From NCBI GenBank assembly GCA_022511065.1, contig JAFLSG010000001.1, forward strand, positions 63,801 to 127,800: DNA of 64,000 bases. The letters run 5' to 3'. Under the pieces are notes generated by a model. The model did no database searches. It saw only the letters and a list, made by a program, of their open reading frames with translations, and was not told the DNA's origin. The DNA comes from Prevotella sp. GTDB lineage: Bacteria > Bacteroidota > Bacteroidia > Bacteroidales > Bacteroidaceae. Positions 534 through 64,000 of this stretch are shown one piece after another. Position 1 is the first letter of the stretch. Each line of letters starts with the position of its first letter. The translations under genes were made by a program, and so were the position numbers.

Positions 534-3356
534 ATGGATTACAATTTCAGAGACATTGAGCAGAAATGGCAAAAGCGGTGGGTGGAGAATGGTACTTACC
601 GCGTGGTGGAAGATAAGAGCAAAAAGAAGTTCTACGTGCTGAATATGTTCCCCTATCCGAGTGGTGCGGGACTTCACGTGGGTCATCCGCTCGGTTATAT
701 CGCCTCGGACATCTATGCGCGCTACAAGCGGCAGCAGGGTTATAACGTACTGAACCCGATGGGCTACGATGCTTACGGACTTCCCGCAGAGCAGTATGCT
801 ATCCAGACAGGTCAGCATCCTGAGAAGACCACCAACGAGAACATCAGCCGCTATCGCAGCCAATTGGACAAGATAGGTTTTTCGTTTGACTGGGATAGGG
901 AGGTGCGTACTTGTGACCCATCTTATTACAAGTGGACGCAGTGGGCTTTCCAGCGTATGTTCAAGTCGTATTACAGCCTTGCCTCGCAAAAGGCGCAGCC
1001 TACCATCAAACTTATTGAGCATTTCGAGTTGATGGGCACCGAGGGTATTTCTGCCGCTTGCACCGAGGAGTTGCATTTTACGGCGAGTGAGTGGGCTGCC
1101 TTTTCGGAGAAGAAAAAGCAAGAGGTGCTGATGAACTATCGTATCGCTTATTTGGCTGACACGATGGTAAACTGGTGCCCTCAGTTGGGTACGGTACTCG
1201 CCAATGATGAGGTGGTGGATGGCGTGAGCGTTCGCGGTGGTTATCCCGTAGTGCAGAAGAAGATGCGCCAGTGGTGCCTGCGTGTTTCTGCCTACGCTCA
1301 GCGCTTGCTTGACGGTTTAGAGGAGATTGACTGGACAGACTCGCTTAAAGAGACACAACGCAATTGGATTGGCCGCTCCGAGGGTGCTGAAATGGAGTTC
1401 AACGTAGCTGATTCCGACAAGCACTTCACGATCTTCACCACTCGTGCGGACACTATCTTTGGCGTGACCTTTATGGTGCTTGCCCCCGAGAGTGAACTCG
1501 TTGCTGAACTGACCACTCCCGAGCAGCAGAAGGCAGTAGATGAGTATCTGACGTATGTTAAGAAACGTACGGAGCGTGATCGCATTTCCGACCGCAAGGT
1601 TACGGGTGTGTTCTCTGGCTCTTACGCCATCAATCCATTCACGGAGGAAAGGATTCCCATTTGGATTAGTGAGTATGTGCTTGCCGGCTATGGTACGGGA
1701 GCCATTATGGCAGTACCGGCGCACGATAGCCGCGACTATGCTTTCGCCAAGCACTTCAATCTGCCCATCATACCGCTCATTGAGGGGGCTGATGTGTCAG
1801 AGGAGAGCTTCGATGCGAAAGAGGGTATCGTGATGAACTCAGCAAGCGAGAAGTTCAGTCTGAACGGACTCACCATCAAGGAAGCCATTGCCAAGACGAA
1901 GAAATACATCACCGAGACGGGTATCGGCCGCGTGAAGGTTAATTACCGCCTTCGCGATGCTATTTTCTCCCGTCAGCGTTATTGGGGCGAACCGTTCCCG
2001 GTTTATTACAAGGACGATATGCCTTATATGATTCCCAAGGAGTGCTTGCCGCTTGAACTGCCTGAAATCGATGAGTACAAGCCCACAGAGACAGGTGAGC
2101 CGCCACTCGGAAGGGCAAAAGTATGGGCTTGGGACACCAAGACAGACAAGGTGGTGGATAAGAGTCTCATTGACAACAAGACCGTCTTCCCGCTCGAACT
2201 GAATACGATGCCGGGATTTGCGGGTTCTTCAGCCTATTATCTGCGCTACATGGACTCCAAGAACGACAAGGCATTGGTAGATAAGGACATCGATCAGTAT
2301 TGGCAGAACGTGGATTTGTATGTGGGTGGTACGGAGCACGCTACGGGTCACCTGATCTATTCCCGTTTCTGGAACAAGTTCCTCTATGACTCTGGTTATA
2401 GCTGCATGGATGAGCCATTCCAGAAGTTGGTGAACCAGGGTATGATTCAGGGTCGTTCAAACTTCGTTTACCGAATCAACAATGCCGATTCAGCAAAGGC
2501 AGACCATCCCGTATTCGTGTCAGCAGGCTTGAAAGACCAATACGATGTAACGCCCATTCACGTGGATGTGAACATCGTGTCAGCAGATGTGCTCGACCTT
2601 GAGGCATTCAAGGCTTGGCGCCCTGAGTATGAGCATGCTGAGTTTATTCTCGAGGATGGCAAGTATATCTGCGGATGGGCTGTTGAGAAGATGTCGAAAT
2701 CTATGTTCAACGTGGTAAACCCGGATATGATTGTGGAGAAATACGGTGCTGACACCCTGCGTCTTTATGAGATGTTCTTGGGTCCTGTGGAGCAATCGAA
2801 GCCTTGGGATACCAACGGCATCGATGGTTGTCACCGTTTCCTCCGCAAGTTCTGGAATCTCTATCAGAATGATTTTGATGACAATACCACGCCCGAGAGT
2901 CTGAAGAGTGTTCACAAGCTCATCAAGAAAGTATCACAGGACATTGAGCATTTCAGTTACAACACTTCGATTTCTGCATTCATGATTTGCGTGAATGAAC
3001 TAACGCAACAAAAGTGCCATTCCAAGGAGCTGCTGAAAACGCTCGTTGTGCTGATTGCTCCGTTTGCCCCGCATATTGCTGAAGAACTCTGGGAGAAACT
3101 TGGAGGCGAGGGTAGTGTATGCGATGCCAAGTGGCCGCAATGGGATGAGCAGTATCTGGTGGAGAGTTCCGTCAAGCTCGGTGTTGCTTTCAACGGCAAG
3201 ACCCGCTTTGAGATGGAGTTTGCCGCTGATGCTGACAATCAGACCATTCAACAGACGGTACTGGCTGATGAGCGTGCTGTGAAATACATCGACGGCAAAG
3301 AGGTTATGAAGGTTATCATCGTCCCTAAGCGTATGGTGAACATTGTTTGCAAATAA
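534..3356 (+). CDS. leuS: leucine--tRNA ligase
   Basis: 940 aa. HIGH-type motif (LHVGHPLGY), KMSKS motif and a CP1 editing-domain layout typical of LeuRS. Confidence 0.97.
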
Positions 3357-3360
3357 GACT

Positions 3361-4290
3361 ATGACACTTGACCATAAAGTGATATGGAATGAGGTGAAAG
3401 ACTATTCTTTCATCACGCTCGGCGTAATGCTGTACTCGGCTGCCTTCACGGTGTTTCTGATGCCTTATCAGATAGTGGCTGGCGGTGTGACGGGATTGTC
3501 GGCTATCATCTACTATGCCACGGGTTTCCATCTGGAGAACACTTACTTGATTATCAATGGAATCTTGTTGTTGGTAGCCTTGCGCATATTGGGTCTGAAG
3601 TTCATGATGAAGACCATCTATGGCATCTTCATGCTCTACGCGACGCTCGCATTTTTCCAAGCCATTATGCCGACACAAGAGAGTGGACTGCCCATCAAAC
3701 TATTGGGTGAGGGTCAGGATTTCATGTCGATGGCTATCGGGTCTATTGCCTCCGGTATTGCTTTGGCAATCATTTTCCTGAACAATGGATCCACGGGTGG
3801 CACGGACATCATTGCCGCAAGCATCAACAAGTATCGCGATGTATCGTTAGGTTCGGTACTCATAGCGGCAGACTTCTGTATCATCGGCTCCTGTATGTTC
3901 TTCCCGCAATTCGGTGACTACATCGAGCGGGCGCATAAGGTGGTGTTCGGATTCTGCGTGATGGTCATCGAAAACTTTATGCTCGACTATATGATGAACG
4001 CACGCCGTCAGTCTGTGCAATTCATGATATTCACCAACAAGTGGCAGGAGATGGCTAATGCGATAGGCACGGAAACCAAGCACGGCGTGACGATTCTTGA
4101 CGGACACGGATGGTACACGGGTAAGAGTCGTAAGGTGCTTTGCGTACTGGCAAAGAAGCGTGAGAGTGTCGGCATTTTCCGTCTCATCAAGATGATTGAC
4201 CCGCAGGCATTCGTCAGTCAGAGTAGTGTCATTGGTGTCTATGGTGAGGGATTTGATCAAATGAAGGTCAGCGTAAAGAAAAAGGAATAG
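3361..4290 (+). CDS. YitT family membrane protein (DUF2179 C-terminal domain)
   Basis: Multi-TM N-terminus with GGVTGLS, and a soluble C-terminal domain. The listed start 3343 is TTG and overlaps the leuS stop, so the ATG at 3361 is preferred. Confidence 0.8.
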
Positions 4291-4297
4291 CATAATC

Positions 4298-4909
4298 ATG
4301 AAAATCGTATTCGCGACAAACAATGAGCATAAACTCTCGGAGATTCGTGCGATTCTCGGGGAAAGCATTGAAGTGCTGTCCTTAAAGGATATCAACTGCG
4401 ATGTGGATATTCCCGAAACGGGAAGCACACTCGAGGAAAATGCCCTGCAAAAGGCGCAATATATCTATGACCACTACCATATCGATGTGTTTGCTGATGA
4501 TACGGGTTTGGAGGTTGATGCGCTGAATGGTGCACCCGGTGTCTATTCCGCCCGCTATGCAGGCGGTGAGGGGCACGATGCGGAGGCTAATATGGTGAAA
4601 CTACTTCATGAATTGGGTGATAATGACAATCGAAAGGCAAGGTTTCGCACGGTAATTGCCCTCATTCAGAAAAAAGAAACCTGCCCTTGTGGGTGTGCGG
4701 GCATCAAGCAAGTAAACAAGTTTGAGGGTATCGTAGAAGGTCAAATCATCCGCGAGAAGAGAGGAGGGGAGGGCTTCGGTTACGATCCTGTCTTCCAGCC
4801 CGATGGCTATGATAAGACATTTGCGGAATTGGGTAATGAGGTGAAGAATCAGATTAGCCATCGTGCCCGTGCCGTTCAGAAGTTGGCTGATTATCTGTTA
4901 GGCAGATGA
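4298..4909 (+). CDS. rdgB: non-canonical purine NTP pyrophosphatase (RdgB/HAM1 family)
   Basis: N-terminal ATNNxHK, and FGYDPVF...ISHRARA at the C-terminus. Confidence 0.9.
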
Positions 4910-22432: not shown

Positions 22433-22510
22433 GCATCGTTTGAAGCCTCCAAACGCATTGAATTCAGCCTTCAAACGACCCGAATTCAGCCTCCAAACTT
22501 TTGGCTTGGA
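22433..22510. repeat. REP-like GCCTCCAAAC/GTTTGGAGGC hairpin cluster, locus 1
   Basis: cgtttgaagcctccaaacgcattgaattcagccttcaaac (22437-22476) is 39/40 identical to 58492-58531. Confidence 0.7.
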
Positions 22511-29544: not shown

Positions 29545-29610
29545 GCGTTTGGAGCGTGCAAACGCATCGTTTGGAGGCTGATTTCACCCCATTTGGAGGC
29601 TCCAAACGGC
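29545..29610. repeat. REP-like GTTTGGAGGC hairpin cluster, locus 2 (inverted relative to loci 1 and 3)
   Basis: gcgtttggagcgtgcaaacgc, cgtttggaggctg, and the perfect palindrome tttggaggctccaaa. Confidence 0.7.
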
Positions 29611-53196: not shown

Positions 53197-53204
53197 TATC
53201 TTTG
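53197..53204 (+). promoter_or_regulatory. -7 box (TATCTTTG) for the ABC ATPase-cobD-cobS-cbiB operon
   Basis: TAnnTTTG 12 nt upstream of the ATG at 53216. Confidence 0.5.
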
Positions 53205-55839: not shown

Positions 55840-56798
55840 TGGGCGCACTTTCTTTGTCAGTGAGCGCAGTGGCTGTATTGATTGGTTGGTTGCTTGATTT
55901 GCTGTTGGGCGATCCTCGTTGGTTGCCACATCCTGTTGTCGGCTTTGGCCACATGATTTCCTTTGTCGAGCATCGGCTGAATAAGGGTTGCCATCGGCGA
56001 CTGAAAGGGGCGCTTCTCGCCGTCTTTCTGATAGCCTTCGTCTTTTTCCTTACTTGTCTTATTCGTCATGCGCTGTCTCTTCTGCCGTGGGGAACTTCCG
56101 TTTGGATGCTCCTTTTCGATGCTGTCATCGTGTTTTATTGTTTGGCGGGAACGACACTTGTTCGCGAAGTGCGCGATGTATTCCTTGCGCTCGACCGCTC
56201 TCTTGAAGAGGGGCAGCGGCAGGTGGCACGCATTGTAGGCAGAGACACCTCTGAACTCTCTGCGCAAGAGGTGCGCACCGCTGCTTTGGAGACATTGGCG
56301 GAAAATCTCAGCGACGGCGTGATTGCCCCGCTTTTCTGGCTTGCCCTGTTGGGTACGCCGGGCATGTTGGCTTACAAGATGGTGAACACACTCGACTCCA
56401 TGATAGGCTATCGTATTGTGCGCTATCGCGATTTCGGTTGCGTGGCTGCTCGTATTGACGATATGGCGAACTACATCCCGGCGCGGCTCACCGCCTTATT
56501 GATGGTCGTGGCGGGGATGATGACCGCCGGCAGCCGCCTGTCGGTCTTTCGTTTCGTGTGGAAATACGGCCGTTGCCATGCCAGTCCCAACAGCGGTTGG
56601 CCCGAAGCCGCCCTTGCCGGGGTGCTCGATTGTCGCTTCGGAGGTGCGCATTATTACTTTGGGGAACTTTTTGACAAGCCTTATATCGGGGAGCATCACC
56701 GCGAACTGACCACAGCCGATATGCAGACGGCAGTGCGAATCAATCGGACGGCGGAAGTTTTGATGCTGCTGCTGGTTCTGCTTAGAAGTATTTGGTGA
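55839..56798 (+). CDS. cbiB: adenosylcobinamide-phosphate synthase
   Basis: LLGDPRWLPHPV N-terminus and SPNSGWPEAA motif. Confidence 0.9.
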   Translation: MGALSLSVSAVAVLIGWLLDLLLGDPRWLPHPVVGFGHMISFVEHRLNKGCHRRLKGALLAVFLIAFVFFLTCLIRHALSLLPWGTSVWMLLFDAVIVFYCLAGTTLVREVRDVFLALDRSLEEGQRQVARIVGRDTSELSAQEVRTAALETLAENLSDGVIAPLFWLALLGTPGMLAYKMVNTLDSMIGYRIVRYRDFGCVAARIDDMANYIPARLTALLMVVAGMMTAGSRLSVFRFVWKYGRCHASPNSGWPEAALAGVLDCRFGGAHYYFGELFDKPYIGEHHRELTTADMQTAVRINRTAEVLMLLLVLLRSIW

Positions 56799-57825
56799 TG
56801 TGGGCATCATCGAAGTTACCCATCTCATTGACCATGCGGACGGCGGAGTCAATGAGCGGATAGGCACAGAGTGCGCCGGTGCCCTCCCCTAAACGAAGCC
56901 CGAGGGCGAGCAGGGGGCGGGCATCAAGCAGGTCGAGCATCCGCCGATGACCGCCTTCATCGCCGCAATGCGTAAAGACCATATAGTCGCGGGCGGCAGG
57001 GTAGAGGCGCACGGCAGCGAGCGCACACGCCGTCATGATGAAGCCGTCTATTAATATAATAAGGTGTCTTTCGGCAGCGCGGAGCATCGCTCCGATGGCG
57101 GCAACCATCTCGAATCCGCCGAAATGCGCAATGATGTCAGCAACTTGGTGGCGGTCGTGCGGTAGTGCTTCCACGGCTTTCCGAAGCACTTCCCGCTTGT
57201 GGCGGATGCCTGCGTCATTAAGTCCTGCGCCCGCCCCGATGCACTCATCAAGGGGAATGCCCCCGAAAAGGCTCATCCAGATGCTCGATGGTGAGGTGTT
57301 TCCAATGCCCATCTCGCCGATGCTCACCACGTTGCAGCCTTCGTCGATGCAATCATCCACAAGCGCCGCACCTATATTCATGGCTTGCTGAAACGCTTCC
57401 CCATCCATTGCCGGCTCGTGAAGAAAGTTCTTGGTGCCAAGGGCAATCTTGCGGTCGATGATGCCGGGAACACTCGACAAGTCGTAATCCACGCCCACAT
57501 CCACGATTTTGAGGCTGATGCCGTGCTGCCTGCAAAACAGATTCACCCCGCCACCGCCTTTTGTAAAGTTAATCATCTGCTGCCACGTCACTTCGCGCGG
57601 GCTTACGCTGACCCCTTCGCGCTCAATGCCGTGGTCGCCGCCAAGCAGCAAGTGGCACGGATGCGAGAGCCGCGGCGTGAGTGTCTGCTGAATCAGGCAT
57701 ATCTGCATAGCCACCTCTTCAAGCATACCCAACGAGCCTTTCGGCTTGTTCAGGTTGTCAATCTTCTGCTGAACGGCGTGCCTCATCGCCTCATCCACGG
57801 GTCTTATGTCGAATGTCCTCATCAT
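56782..57825 (-). CDS. cobT: nicotinate-nucleotide--dimethylbenzimidazole phosphoribosyltransferase
   Basis: KPKGSLGMLEE, EMGIGNTS. Confidence 0.95.
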   Translation of the reverse strand: MMRTFDIRPVDEAMRHAVQQKIDNLNKPKGSLGMLEEVAMQICLIQQTLTPRLSHPCHLLLGGDHGIEREGVSVSPREVTWQQMINFTKGGGGVNLFCRQHGISLKIVDVGVDYDLSSVPGIIDRKIALGTKNFLHEPAMDGEAFQQAMNIGAALVDDCIDEGCNVVSIGEMGIGNTSPSSIWMSLFGGIPLDECIGAGAGLNDAGIRHKREVLRKAVEALPHDRHQVADIIAHFGGFEMVAAIGAMLRAAERHLIILIDGFIMTACALAAVRLYPAARDYMVFTHCGDEGGHRRMLDLLDARPLLALGLRLGEGTGALCAYPLIDSAVRMVNEMGNFDDAHITKYF

Positions 57826-58328
57826 TTTATCTTTACGGGAATGCCGCTAACCATCAGAATCACCTCGTCCGCCTGTCGCGCGATGTATTGGTTCATCCAC
57901 CCTTCAAGGTCGGTAAACCGCCTTTGCACGGCACTTTCGCTCACACCGCCGCTGCCTATCTCGTTGGTTACGAAGATAAACGTGGCATCCTGCGCCGTGA
58001 ATCGGTCGAACTCCGCCTTTGCCGCCTCAAGCGAGGCATCCACATCCGATGTCTCCGTGAAGAAGTTCGTCAGCCAGAGCGTCACGCAGTCTATCAGCAC
58101 CACGCGCCCACTCACGTCGTGTCTGCTCAAAAACTTCTCCTCTTCGATGTTCGTCCATTGTTCGCCGCGCCGTGCCTGATGCCTGCGCACGCGCTCGCGG
58201 AACTCATCATCCCAGATGTGAGCCGTCGCCATATAGACAGGATTTACTGACAGCGAGAGTGCCATCTCTTCCGCCCGTCTGCTCTTTCCCGAGCGCTGCC
58301 CGCCGGTTATCAGTATGATTCGTTTCAA
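57822..58328 (-). CDS. cobU: bifunctional adenosylcobinamide kinase / cobinamide-phosphate guanylyltransferase
   Basis: P-loop GGQRSGKS at the extreme N-terminus. The start codon is TTG (caa at 58326-58328). Confidence 0.9.
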   Translation of the reverse strand: MKRIILITGGQRSGKSRRAEEMALSLSVNPVYMATAHIWDDEFRERVRRHQARRGEQWTNIEEEKFLSRHDVSGRVVLIDCVTLWLTNFFTETSDVDASLEAAKAEFDRFTAQDATFIFVTNEIGSGGVSESAVQRRFTDLEGWMNQYIARQADEVILMVSGIPVKIK

Positions 58329-58471: not shown

Positions 58472-58480
58472 GACAGGGGT

Positions 58481-58554
58481 TGAATTCAATGCGTTTGAAG
58501 CCTCCAAACGCATTGAATTCAGCCTCCAAACAAGTCGTTTGAAGCCTCCAAACG
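58481..58554. repeat. REP-like GCCTCCAAAC hairpin cluster, locus 3
   Basis: Three copies of (c)gtttgaagcctccaaac(g). 39/40 identical to locus 1 over 40 nt. Confidence 0.7.
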
Positions 58555-58600
58555 AAAAACATGTATCTTGATGCTCTGAGTATTCTGCCGAAATACTCCC

Positions 58601-58663
58601 TGTATTCAGCCTATATACATGTTGTATATGCCCAGAATACTGGGTGTATATAGGCTGAATACA
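58601..58663. repeat. perfect 18-bp inverted repeat with nested hairpin
   Basis: tgtattcagcctatatac (58601-18) pairs with gtatataggctgaataca (58646-63). The loop contains cccagaatactggg. Confidence 0.7.
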
Positions 58664-58752
58664 ATGCAGATATATCCGGCAAAGTCTATACCATAACCAC
58701 CGAAACTTTTTGAAATCATTGGAAAAAGTTTCTTTATTTCTCCGAAAATGCG

Positions 58753-58760
58753 TATCTTTG
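58753..58760 (+). promoter_or_regulatory. -7 box (TATCTTTG) driving the riboswitch transcript
   Basis: gcgtatctttgc immediately upstream of the riboswitch. Confidence 0.55.
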
Positions 58761-58761
58761 C

Positions 58762-58950
58762 AGCCGCGATACCGCAAGAGGTGTCGCCCGTGAAGGTTCG
58801 CTTAGCCGCGATTAAATGGGAATGTGAGTGTGAATCTCCGACTGTCCCGCAGCTGTGAACTCCTTTATGTCGCTCAAGCAACAAACCATTGCCCGTTTGG
58901 ACGAGAAGGCGCTTGAGGGTGGAGGAAAGTCAGAAGACCTGCCTTTATCG
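58762..58950 (+). promoter_or_regulatory. cobalamin (B12) riboswitch
   Basis: AAAUGGGAAUGUGAGUGUGAAUCUCCGACUGUCCCGCAGCUGUGA core, CCAUUGCCC...GAGAAGGCG, and the B12 box AGUCAGAAGACCUGCC at 58928-58943. Confidence 0.85.
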
Positions 58951-59205
58951 GAAAAATGCCGGATGCTCTCGATGTAAGAGCGCGAGGCGATACGGGAAAT
59001 ATTTCGGGACAAAGGGAGCGGCGGCAGCCGTGCCACATCTTGCTTGGGCGTGCCGGTCACATGGTTGGCTCGGGGCGCAAAGCCTGGAGTGATACGTGTA
59101 TTATTATATAGGTATTGACGGAGATCCTGTCGTGAGATAGCATCTCCTTCGTTAAAAAATGAGTTTGTATGCGGCGGAAGCCGATGATATATGGCAAAAT
59201 TAACG

Positions 59206-59213
59206 TAACTTTG
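59206..59213 (+). promoter_or_regulatory. -7 box (TAACTTTG) immediately upstream of the nuclease-helicase ATG
   Basis: TAnnTTTG ends 8 nt before the ATG at 59221. This implies a leaderless or very short leader mRNA, or a downstream start. Confidence 0.4.
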
Positions 59214-59220
59214 CGCGCTG

Positions 59221-62633: not shown

Positions 62634-62641
62634 TACCTTTG
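62634..62641 (+). promoter_or_regulatory. -7 box (TACCTTTG) for the TonB-dependent receptor
   Basis: TAnnTTTG 57 nt upstream of the ATG at 62698. Confidence 0.5.
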
Positions 62642-62697: not shown

Positions 62698-64000
62698 ATG
62701 AATAAAATGCAAAGAAACTGCGGGTTGCTTGTTCTGATGACCTCTCCAATAACTGCCCTCGCTGACGGGCAATCCCTTCGCAACGACACGATTGTGGAGA
62801 AGACTCACTATCTTCAGGAGGTGACGGTGACGGAGACCCGTCGCCATCACGAGGTGACGAGCACCGCCCCCCTGCACATTCTCGACAGGAAGGAAATGCT
62901 GAGCCTCGGCGTGACCGACATCGCCGATGCGCTGCACCGCATTCCCGGCGTGACTTTGCGCGACTATGGCGGTGCGGGAGGCATGAAGGTGGTGTCCGTG
63001 CGCGGCTTCGGTGCGAAGCATACGGGGGTAAGTTACGACGGCATTGCACTGAGCGACTGCCAGAGCGGTGAGATTGATCTCTCGCGCTATTCGCTTGACA
63101 ACGTGGAGCAACTATCGCTTGTCATCGGTGACAATGACGACATCTTTATCCCTGCCAAGAATGCAAGTACCCCGGCGCTACTGAACATTCAGACCATCGG
63201 ACTGCCCACGGGCGATACCCGTCCGCATCTGACGGCACAGTTGAAGGCAGGCTCATTCGGTTATGTCAGCCCCTTCCTACGCTATGAGCAGAATCTCTCC
63301 GACAAGTTTGCTTTCTCGGCAGCGGGCGAATATACCTACGCAGAGAATGACTATCCCTTTGAACTCCGCAACATTTCGATTGTCACGCACGAGCGTCGCA
63401 CGAACAGTCGGATGAACGCGGGGCACGGAGAACTGAACTTTGTATGGAATGCCGATGCCTTCAACAGGCTTGGCGGTAAGATATACTACTATGACAACGA
63501 CCGGCAGTTGCCGGGACAAGTGAGGTATTACACCGACCTCAACAAGGAGATGCTGCACGACCGCAACTTCTTCGGACAGTTGCAGTATCAGACACACAAC
63601 CGCACGGGCTGGTCGCTGAAGTGGAATGGCAAGTTCAATTGGAATGCCTCCATCTATAAAGACCCGCTGTATTCCGGCGGTGTCAATGACGCAAGCTACT
63701 GGCAGCGCGAGGCATATACCTCGGCGGCGGTGCTGTATGCACCTTCGGAGCAATGGGCTTTCGACTACTCCGCCGACTACAGTTTCAACAATCTGAACAG
63801 CGTGGCATTCCGCACCATCAATACACGGCCTTACCGTCATACGCTATTGCAGTCCGCCACCGCGAAGTATCGCAACGGTCGGCTGACGGCATTGGCACGC
63901 CTGTTGCACTCCACCTACCTGAATGACGCGAAGGATGGCGAGGGTGCGCGCAATATGCGGCGACTCTCTCCCTCGCTCTCACTCTCCTATCGGTTAGTTC
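62698..64000 (+). CDS. TonB-dependent receptor, BtuB-like (3' end beyond the window)
   Basis: Not in the ORF track because there is no stop in the window. I translated 434 codons by hand with no stop. Plug-domain motifs are present: DIADALHRIPGVTLRDYGGAGGMKVVSVRGFG and IDLSRYSLDNVEQLSLV. Confidence 0.85.
   Translation, partial: MNKMQRNCGLLVLMTSPITALADGQSLRNDTIVEKTHYLQEVTVTETRRHHEVTSTAPLHILDRKEMLSLGVTDIADALHRIPGVTLRDYGGAGGMKVVSVRGFGAKHTGVSYDGIALSDCQSGEIDLSRYSLDNVEQLSLVIGDNDDIFIPAKNASTPALLNIQTIGLPTGDTRPHLTAQLKAGSFGYVSPFLRYEQNLSDKFAFSAAGEYTYAENDYPFELRNISIVTHERRTNSRMNAGHGELNFVWNADAFNRLGGKIYYYDNDRQLPGQVRYYTDLNKEMLHDRNFFGQLQYQTHNRTGWSLKWNGKFNWNASIYKDPLYSGGVNDASYWQREAYTSAAVLYAPSEQWAFDYSADYSFNNLNSVAFRTINTRPYRHTLLQSATAKYRNGRLTALARLLHSTYLNDAKDGEGARNMRRLSPSLSLSYRLV

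Follow-up and report, generated by a model that had tools for sequence, protein, structure and literature searches.

A cobalamin riboswitch leader with a conserved expression platform and no adjoining classical target in a Prevotella cob/btu neighbourhood

The exchange of vitamin B12 (cobalamin) shapes rumen and gut communities, in which Prevotella is a dominant corrinoid consumer. Here, we examine a cobalamin riboswitch and the non-coding DNA behind it in a 64,000-nt stretch of Prevotella sp. DNA (contig JAFLSG010000001.1), called the window, whose numbering is used throughout. The riboswitch points away from the cobalamin genes cobU and cobT, towards a gene for a DNA2-like helicase and, farther on, a gene for a BtuB-like receptor. 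A first-pass annotation of this DNA had called the riboswitch apparently orphan and had left three explanations side by side: that the helicase gene was inserted between the riboswitch and btuB, that the riboswitch gates a non-coding RNA, or that a DNA-processing enzyme (the helicase) is under B12 control. That much holds: the riboswitch no longer adjoins a classical target of any kind.

The riboswitch and its genomic neighbourhood

At gathering thresholds, Rfam gives a single match in the whole window, to the cobalamin riboswitch family RF00174. The match covers the full model (1–189 of 189; 83.1 bits, with the cut-off at 31.5; E 5.5e-19) and lies on the plus strand, where the riboswitch had first been placed. 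The B12 box and the conserved core (GGGAA, a GCCACUG-like element and AGUCAGAAGACCUGCC) are present in the cmscan alignment and in the alignment of leaders described below. The aptamer is an ordinary member of its family; corrinoid binding and the control of downstream expression are putative functions. Because this match is the only one, the cobalamin operons of the window have no riboswitch of their own, neither at cobU/cobT and the ABC (ATP-binding cassette) ATPase–cobD operon, as had been claimed, nor at the cobQ–btuC operon. A second strain (L083; such labels denote the loci that we compared) shares this gene layout, its aptamer scoring 88.4 bits.

Promoters of the Bacteroidota type, with the −7 element of sigma-ABfr (TAnnTTTG), are predicted from the sequence ahead of the riboswitch, the helicase gene and btuB (at 58753, 59206 and 62634). 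The motif is enriched, with 45 copies in the window and 29 ± 5 in shuffled sequences. The boxes and their order around a non-coding stretch were thus described correctly at first, but the distances were not: 260 nt rather than 277 nt separate the aptamer from the next ATG (58961–59220), and the helicase box lies 7 nt rather than 8 nt from its start codon. The ABC ATPase–cobD operon likewise has a box 8 nt before its start (53197–53204, ATG 53213), as the helicase gene does at 7 nt (ATG 59221), so leaderless or near-leaderless mRNAs are implied for both. This operon (ABC ATPase, cobD aminotransferase, cobS and cbiB) lies farther left of cobT.

The helicase has a superfamily 1B core (AAA_11 and AAA_12, Pfam E 4e-24 and 5e-30), and its best solved relative in the PDB is the DNA2 helicase domain only (E 1.7e-29). 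Residues 327–448 resemble, weakly, a Cas4-like PD-(D/E)XK nuclease (PADLOC Cas4, E 0.001; PADLOC also gives MkoA for the helicase part), and a Pfam scan of residues 1–693 returned no match. Full-length homologs run into the thousands, the nearest outside its own species being 65% identical; the L083 copy is 97% identical.

The gene caller starts btuB in frame at ATG 62617, 18 nt after the helicase stop and upstream of the TACCTTTG box. We infer ATG 62698 instead, which lies downstream of that box, gives a normal signal peptide (MNKMQRNCGLLVLM...) and leaves about 100 nt after the helicase stop. It is 3.74 kb from the aptamer, which agrees with the 3.7 kb and the −7 box of the first-pass annotation. 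The receptor scores 92 bits with the BtuB model TIGR01779 (cut-off 600), and its best NCBIfam match is TonB-B12, below the cut-off of that family; it is BtuB-like in having Plug and barrel domains and synteny with btuG- and btuF-like genes. Beyond the window, the source contig (context in L001) continues with a BtuG-like DUF5074 protein, BtuF (Peripla_BP_2) and a PfkB kinase, and btuB–btuG–btuF synteny was found in 80 loci.

The region between cobU and the riboswitch (58478–58667) bears repeats. One is a 17-bp palindrome around GTTTGAAGCCTCCAAAC, whose hairpin occurs there in a second copy, and another is a perfect inverted repeat of 19 bp (58601–58619 and 58645–58663). The short GTTTGAAGCCTCCAAAC hairpin is found again at 22438–22454 and, with two mismatches, at 29591–29607, and it resembles a dispersed repeat of the REP (repetitive extragenic palindromic) type. 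A 66-nt indel separates L083 from the window in this region.

Table 1. Features of the riboswitch locus in the window
Feature	Position	Strand	Evidence or remark
cobT	56782–57825	−	left of the riboswitch
cobU	57822–58328	−	left of the riboswitch
Leader promoter, −7 box TATCTTTG (Bacteroidota type, TAnnTTTG)	58753–58760	+	motif scan
Cobalamin riboswitch aptamer, RF00174	58777–58960	+	83.1 bits, full model
P13-like hairpin GCC / GCUCU-[CGAUGUA]-AGAGC / GGC	58958–58988	+	invariant loop, covarying inner stem
GC-rich linker, about 62% GC, lineage-specific	58989–59091	+	absent from six homologous leaders
AU-rich box ATACGTGTATTATTATATAgGTaTTGAC	59092–59119	+	GTATTATTATAT invariant in 30 aligned copies
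12-bp GNRA hairpin GGAGAUCCUGUC-GUGA-GAUAGCAUCUCC	59120–59147	+	5' arm like a Shine-Dalgarno sequence, GUG in the loop, one C.C mismatch
U-rich tail UUCGUU and A run, then a junction of about 50 nt that cannot be assigned	59148–59205	+	holds a 14-codon ATG open reading frame, 59159–59203
−7 box TAACTTTG of the helicase gene	59206–59213	+	7 nt before ATG 59221
DNA2-like superfamily 1 helicase, 1125 aa	59221–62598	+	Pfam AAA_11, AAA_12, AAA_19, AAA_30
−7 box TACCTTTG ahead of btuB	62634–62641	+	motif scan
5' part of the BtuB-like TonB-dependent receptor gene	62698–64000	+	Plug domain

The expression platform and its leader class

Homologs show that the 260-nt stretch between aptamer and helicase gene is not spacer: a class of Prevotella leaders has it as a conserved expression platform. 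The stretch is non-coding, as first described, but not empty. The lead came from positions 59098–59148, which matched an intergenic site in L022/L023, flanked by cbiK and the gene of a second TonB receptor, inside a riboswitch-led operon and about 3.5 kb from any aptamer. A search of metagenomes with an exact 19-nt pattern derived from the terminal hairpin gave 51 stretches, 44 of them true copies, with the consensus ACGTGTATTATTATATAAGTTT, 5–8 nt, GGAG(G/A)TGCTGTC-GTGA-GACAGCATCTCC and a U-rich tail. A cobalamin aptamer, confirmed or detected by nhmmer, precedes 20 of the 44 copies at 80–320 nt on the same strand, and in ten loci the aptamer is about 3.5 kb upstream and the copy is an operon-internal site; eleven of the upstream aptamers were confirmed by Rfam (62–97 bits). 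Seven leaders (L107, L109, L123/L126, L124/L131 and L128) align with the window module by module, from the promoter box (conserved as TA[ACT]CTTTG in all seven) through the aptamer, the P13-like hairpin and the AU-rich box to the terminal hairpin, and homology ends directly after that hairpin. The aptamer of the window scores 106 bits with L128, 99 with L123, 90 with L107 and 88 with L109. The leaders matched at these scores belong to another receptor family, a LysR gene and sites without cargo.

The P13-like hairpin is probably the switching helix of the platform. Its loop CTCGATGTAAG does not vary among the seven leaders, and its inner stem covaries (CCCT/AGGG, CGCTCT/AGGGCG, GCTCT/AGAGC). 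RNAalifold proposes an alternative helix in which the 3' tail of P1, GCC(C/U)U, pairs with the 3' arm of P13, AGGGC; this pairing is a plausible switch. The AUGUA of the loop could also pair with UACGU at the start of the AU-rich box, with no covariation seen. The platform departs from the classical btuB type in two respects: the first gene starts 230 nt after P13, and the L13 sequence CGAUGUA is not complementary to the L5 sequence UCCCG, so the classical L5–L13 kissing loop is not evident.

Between P13 and the AU-rich box, the window alone among the aligned leaders carries a GC-rich linker of about 105 nt, which differs from L083 at one position. It holds no open reading frame (ORF), and neither six-frame tblastn nor an Rfam scan by E-value found a homolog of it. 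A repeat or a miniature inverted-repeat transposable element was rejected, the linker being unique in the window. The AU-rich box is conserved as nucleic acid, since its copies are read in two different frames inside ORFs or, in non-coding DNA, not at all.

The terminal hairpin has a predicted stability of −16.6 kcal/mol in the window (z −4.6) and of −23.5 kcal/mol in its common form, and our covariance model R1 scores 71.7 bits on the window copy. Its variation fits RNA pairing on the plus strand, with A-U/G-U and G-C/G-U alternations, and a divergent copy in L037 keeps GUC-GUGA-GA(U/C) with an outer stem that is wholly different yet paired (GGCGGA/UCCGCC). The search pattern fixed the 3' arm of the hairpin, and formal covariation statistics would therefore be biased. 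The GUG of the loop lies 7 nt behind a canonical Shine-Dalgarno sequence, GGAGGU, in the 5' arm. In leaders of the window type, this GUG is followed by AGA and the stop codon UAG, and relatives have an ATG 15–30 nt later. The platform module (AU-rich box and Shine-Dalgarno/GUG hairpin) is apparently undescribed, and no description of it is found in PMC11575231 or PMC12121620.

What follows the hairpin varies between loci, the usual neighbour in rumen metagenomes being a TonB receptor gene other than btuB. In L123/L126, L109 and L110, this receptor has 724 aa, shares only about 24% identity with the BtuB of the window and starts 18–26 nt after the hairpin; the corresponding ORF of L107 closes after 134 aa. 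A LysR gene comes next in L128, and in L104 an unannotated ORF of 133 aa stands before a LysR gene. On at least ten contigs, a receptor ORF runs from the loop GUG into a signal peptide (VRQHLLLALLLAGCLGAQAQ...), and TonB-receptor ORFs appear to start at that GUG in L094, L096, L102, L106, L118, L120, L133, L134 and L136. Lying 7 nt past a perfect GGAGGU, it makes a structured start site of the Shine-Dalgarno type; Bacteroidota rarely use Shine-Dalgarno sequences. Gene callers would extend such ORFs upstream through the AU-rich box (M..RVLLYKF..). In L037 (9436–9949) and L128 (1132–1832), two full-length cobalamin riboswitches of differing platform types stand back to back on opposite strands, 140–320 nt apart.

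Several other identities for the 260-nt stretch were considered. A small protein or a gene remnant was rejected: the ORFs in 58961–59220 reach at most 67 aa, Pfam was negative and six-frame tblastn against 87 loci gave only self matches. A known RNA family was rejected as well, the Rfam scan of the platform by E-value giving only noise (E about 2). The AU-rich box and the hairpin were rejected as a conserved leader peptide (RVLLYKF..GGAVVRQHLL), because L091, L116 and L122 use another frame (MKYVYYYISL) and leaders of the window type are non-coding here, with in-frame stops. An internal promoter in the AU-rich box (TAAGTTTG) is weakened rather than dismissed, its final G being missing in many copies and in the window. 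In a riboswitch-led operon of X. ruminicola KHP1, late genes are as B12-repressed as early ones (PMC11575231), which counts against an internal promoter if that operon carries the box and the hairpin. Two viral matches of the hairpin were chance hits in coding sequence without the AU-rich box, and a phage link was rejected. The junction behind the hairpin (59148–59205) has no similarity to related leaders or to the upstream regions of helicase orthologs, and an apparent likeness of 59165–59195 to the start of the L109 receptor gene was not upheld by alignment.

Two short stretches of the platform also match E. coli 23S rRNA (rrlH, L148), in the same order. The P13 loop CTCGATGT (58968–58975) matches positions 2499–2506 (2558–2565 of L148), and the common apex of the terminal hairpin, GTCGTGAGACAG, matches 2592–2603 (2651–2662 of L148); the window copy of the apex (59129–59140, GTCGTGAGATAG) has one mismatch. 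A mimic of 23S rRNA was rejected, as gapped alignment of the platform is no better than with shuffled sequences (z 0.1–0.5), and at that level the two matches may be coincidence.

Between the two strains, the leader ranks as the best-conserved stretch. Over 58753–59197, the window and L083 differ at 6 of 445 nt (1.3%), whereas 445-nt windows across the shared 12.8 kb differ at 19.6 positions on average and only 2.2% of them are as conserved. Genes have diverged by 3–5% and the intergenic DNA just upstream of the leader, with its indel, by more than 10%. Four of the differences fall in the 184 nt of the aptamer, and the one in the promoter box (58755, T>C) falls on an 'n' of TAnnTTTG. This pattern points to purifying selection on the leader, which is probably functional.

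In at least five genomic contexts besides the window, leaders of this kind also occur intact without co-directional downstream cargo, their full RF00174 matches (79–97 bits) scoring as high as those of cargo-linked aptamers. In L138, only 8 nt separate the hairpin from the stop of a convergent LuxR/hemerythrin gene, and cobS–cobU–cobT and cbiB are neighbours. In L124/L131, the next gene is convergent and encodes a GH5 protein; it ends 74 nt downstream, and a second hairpin lies in between. The ORF upstream looks MutY-like by its N-terminal sequence. On the minus strand of L037, 60 nt are followed by a gene for a helix-hairpin-helix protein with its own TACTTTTG box. L088 and L092 have an amidase and a phage-type integrase downstream (in L088, native 2417–4594 on the minus strand, the Amidase_2 gene and the integrase lie within 1–1.6 kb of the leader). 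The leader of L117 is related to that of L088 and has different downstream DNA; it is probably an orphan too, the contig ending 494 nt downstream. The end of the leader may be a hot spot for integration or recombination.

What the leader may control

The best explanation, in our view, is B12-gated attenuation, with read-through into helicase–btuBGF from a leader that was displaced and has been maintained by selection. This reading is tentative, and we put its probability at roughly 0.42. Under it, 58753–59153 would be a complete leader (promoter, aptamer, P13-like hairpin, AU-rich box, and GNRA hairpin with U-rich tail) of a type so far found in rumen Prevotella. Relatives carry such a leader 15–30 nt ahead of a TonB receptor of another family, a LysR gene or a 133-aa ORF, and in the lineage of the window a rearrangement would have replaced this usual cargo, so that the leader now adjoins the helicase gene, a newcomer with a near-leaderless promoter of its own. 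When B12 is bound, transcription would stop at or before the hairpin and leave an RNA of about 390 nt; with B12 scarce, the polymerase would read on into the helicase gene and btuB–btuG–btuF. Read-through would add a B12-repressible component to the constitutive promoters of the helicase gene and btuB, and B12 control of the helicase would be a by-product.

Such read-through is physically possible because no terminator-like site was found between the helicase stop and btuB. Long riboswitch-led operons have precedents among the BtuB orthologs: in L066 (5963–9875) and L062 (4077–9932), and also in L050, L055 and L058, a riboswitch is followed by genes for a biotin carboxylase, a biotin carboxyl carrier protein and a carboxyltransferase and only then by btuB, which lies 10 nt after the carboxyltransferase genes in L066. 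The riboswitch and btuB are 4–6 kb apart in L062 and L066, and in Prevotellaceae/Bacteroidaceae metagenome-assembled genomes (MAGs) of this type an acyl-CoA carboxylase appears to be under B12 control. In X. ruminicola KHP1, the transcripts of a six-gene riboswitch-led operon drop 25- to 75-fold with B12 (PMC11575231), and many Gram-negative cobalamin riboswitches act on transcription (PMC12121620).

The comparison of loci further marks the helicase gene as foreign to this site. None of the 80 BtuB-ortholog loci, which were fetched with up to 10 kb of flank, contains it, and in nine other contexts (L084/85/86, L087, L139, L140, L141/142, L143, L144 and L145) no riboswitch precedes it. Its own −7 box recurs 6–7 nt before the start in L139, L141 and L084, as a near-match in L140 and at 26 nt in L087, which makes the gene a self-contained, near-leaderless unit. 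In four of these contexts (L087:8001–13327, L139:122–5408, L141:6001–11099, with L142, and L144:5001–9492), a btuD-like ABC ATPase gene begins 11–58 nt after the helicase gene, and the cobD aminotransferase gene is next in the first three. In the window, the ABC ATPase–cobD pair lies 5 kb to the left, and the arrangement is therefore a lineage-specific rearrangement in a plastic cob/btu neighbourhood. This linkage of a gene for a DNA2-like enzyme to genes of B12 salvage is conserved across those four Prevotella contexts.

Several points weigh against attenuation with read-through. A terminator scan does not call the hairpin tail (four T in eight); the hairpin is strong but its U-tract, UUCGUU, is weak. 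The hairpin resembles a sequestered ribosome-binding site as much as a terminator, and switching of translation there would be without effect on a gene that lies 72 nt away behind its own leaderless promoter. Good −7 boxes stand at the helicase gene and btuB, so that the contribution of the riboswitch could be negligible. Moreover, the conservation argument comes from two strains whose identity is mosaic, and the intact leaders without cargo in L124/L131 and L138 imply that conservation need not depend on a target in cis.

These same leaders lead to the second reading, which the first-pass annotation had also raised: that the unit 58766–59153 is a transcript in its own right, a stand-alone B12-gated RNA. 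Its 3' module (AU-rich box and hairpin) would be made or exposed only at low B12 and could titrate a factor that binds the module, after the model of EutX and Rli55; at convergent sites the RNA could instead act as an antisense RNA, by the logic of AspocR (see below). We rank this reading second, because orphan leaders recur and the module is reused, and think it unlikely on balance. Cargo-free leaders occur intact in several independent contexts (L124/L131, L138, L037, L088/L092), the module recurs at the 5' ends of receptor genes and far from any aptamer between cbiK and the second receptor gene, and the leader is strongly conserved between strains. By aptamer sequence, two of the four riboswitches predicted in X. 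ruminicola KHP1 belong with the window; according to PMC11575231, just two of the four stand immediately ahead of B12 genes. Against this, no candidate trans factor or target emerged, the window offers a co-directional operon for ordinary cis control, the exact 19-nt search would miss decayed copies, and rearrangement around a repeated element prone to recombination could have produced every one of the orphans recently. A wider claim places the leader in a rumen Prevotella family of RNAs that sense B12 on their own and act as decoys in trans or as antisense RNAs at convergent sites; it is about as unlikely, by a narrow margin more so. As a decoy, its 3' module would copy the 5' module of corrinoid-receptor mRNAs.

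Alternatively, the leader could be a recently orphaned relic that lost its receptor gene in a rearrangement and has no present role, being intact through recency or homogenising recombination. The unassignable junction of about 50 nt between the hairpin and the helicase promoter would fit a relic, as would the gene order around the cob cluster, which differs in every relative examined, the integrase beside one orphan leader and the mosaic identity between the strains. However, the window and L083 share the arrangement, which therefore predates their split, and the leader has since diverged far less than the genes and the intergenic DNA around it. All modules and the promoter box are intact, and orphan aptamers score as high as cargo-linked ones. 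We place this reading third and consider it doubtful.

An improbable fourth reading is that the leader is a former btuB riboswitch and that the helicase gene dropped in between. A cobalamin riboswitch is present in 49 of the 80 BtuB-ortholog loci, directly before btuB in about 40, and the helicase gene is present in none, so synteny in relatives does not refute an insertion; in L075 and L076, cobU on the minus strand followed by riboswitch–btuB resembles the window minus the helicase gene. The foreign origin of the helicase thus agrees with this part of the first-pass annotation, but the riboswitch is unlike btuB-linked leaders in both aptamer and platform. The window aptamer reaches at most 59 bits with btuB-linked aptamers, against 88–106 bits with the leaders of other genes. 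The leaders linked to btuB have a GGG-rich P13 loop (CUCGAGGAAAG or CUCUGGGGUUAGG) and an ATG 15–35 nt later, with no AU-rich box or hairpin, and a search of the 80 loci with model R1 gave no copy before btuB. Rumen Prevotella MAGs supply the closest BtuB orthologs (55–75% identity), and the 20 closest (66–75%) show no riboswitch in the available flank, which is shorter than 1.3 kb in several (Rfam on eight, an nhmmer profile on all); the only riboswitch of L019 is divergent and lies 1.5 kb away. In the two of these loci that were read, an ORF of 290–292 aa lies directly before btuB (L007:9129–10007, where it overlaps the btuB start, and L071:9105–9977). The L007 ORF is nuclease-like, with PD-(D/E)XK motifs (IDMV, DWK, QQNLY), a weak Cas4 match and a TACCTTTG box upstream. 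Homology of this nuclease gene with the N-terminus of the helicase was rejected (BLASTP E 0.84), as was homology with a 372-aa gene after the helicase gene in L084.

Finally, it is very improbable that the nuclease-helicase came under B12 control adaptively: although it is the first gene after the leader and adjoins the btuD-like ATPase and cobD genes elsewhere, the nine riboswitch-free contexts lend the idea no comparative support, its promoter is kept 7 nt from its start codon, and leader homology ends 72 nt upstream of its ATG.

Relation to known B12-dependent leaders and RNAs

The AU-rich box and the Shine-Dalgarno/GUG hairpin, which match nothing in Rfam, are the mark of one subclass among Prevotella B12 leaders and of sites within B12 operons, and the module may show how Bacteroidota couple a riboswitch to expression despite their rare use of Shine-Dalgarno sequences. 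For annotation, the locus is a caution: a riboswitch beside a helicase gene, with btuB downstream, proves neither gene to be its evolved target. In addition, the recurrence of intact orphan B12 leaders makes the question of riboswitch-controlled regulatory RNAs in Bacteroidota a testable one.

Like the cis-acting cobalamin leaders (RF00174; btuB of E. coli and of Bacteroides/Prevotella), the leader in the window combines a full aptamer, B12 box included, with a promoter of its own and a P13-like hairpin behind P1, and it lies at the edge of a cob/btu cluster. Unlike them, its platform is not followed by a target start codon and carries the AU-rich box and the GNRA hairpin in addition.

EutX of Enterococcus faecalis and Rli55 of Listeria monocytogenes are regulatory RNAs that contain riboswitches. 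The window resembles them in sequence layout: a B12 aptamer with its own promoter is followed by a non-coding stretch that ends in a hairpin, the downstream module resembles sites on regulated mRNAs, and several relatives have no downstream gene. It differs in that it belongs to another phylum, comes without an ANTAR-type protein, eut genes or an identified partner, and is followed by a co-directional operon.

The cultured relative X. ruminicola KHP1 offers the same aptamer type together with public RNA-seq with and without B12. Two of its riboswitches, at 1604149–1604333(−) and 2792551–2792735(+), have near-window aptamers, a likeness of aptamer sequences compared by eye, and two others correspond to B12 operons (PMC11575231, Table S5).

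A parallel for some of the orphans is AspocR, a B12-riboswitch-controlled antisense RNA of Listeria (PMC11575231). The leaders of L138 and L124/L131 point into the 3' end of a convergent gene, where read-through would be antisense and B12-dependent; in the window the downstream genes are co-directional, and this mechanism is inapplicable there. If the leaders do prove to be a family of trans-acting RNAs, they would be a Bacteroidota counterpart of EutX, Rli55 and AspocR, and the AU-rich box with its hairpin would be a new regulatory RNA motif.

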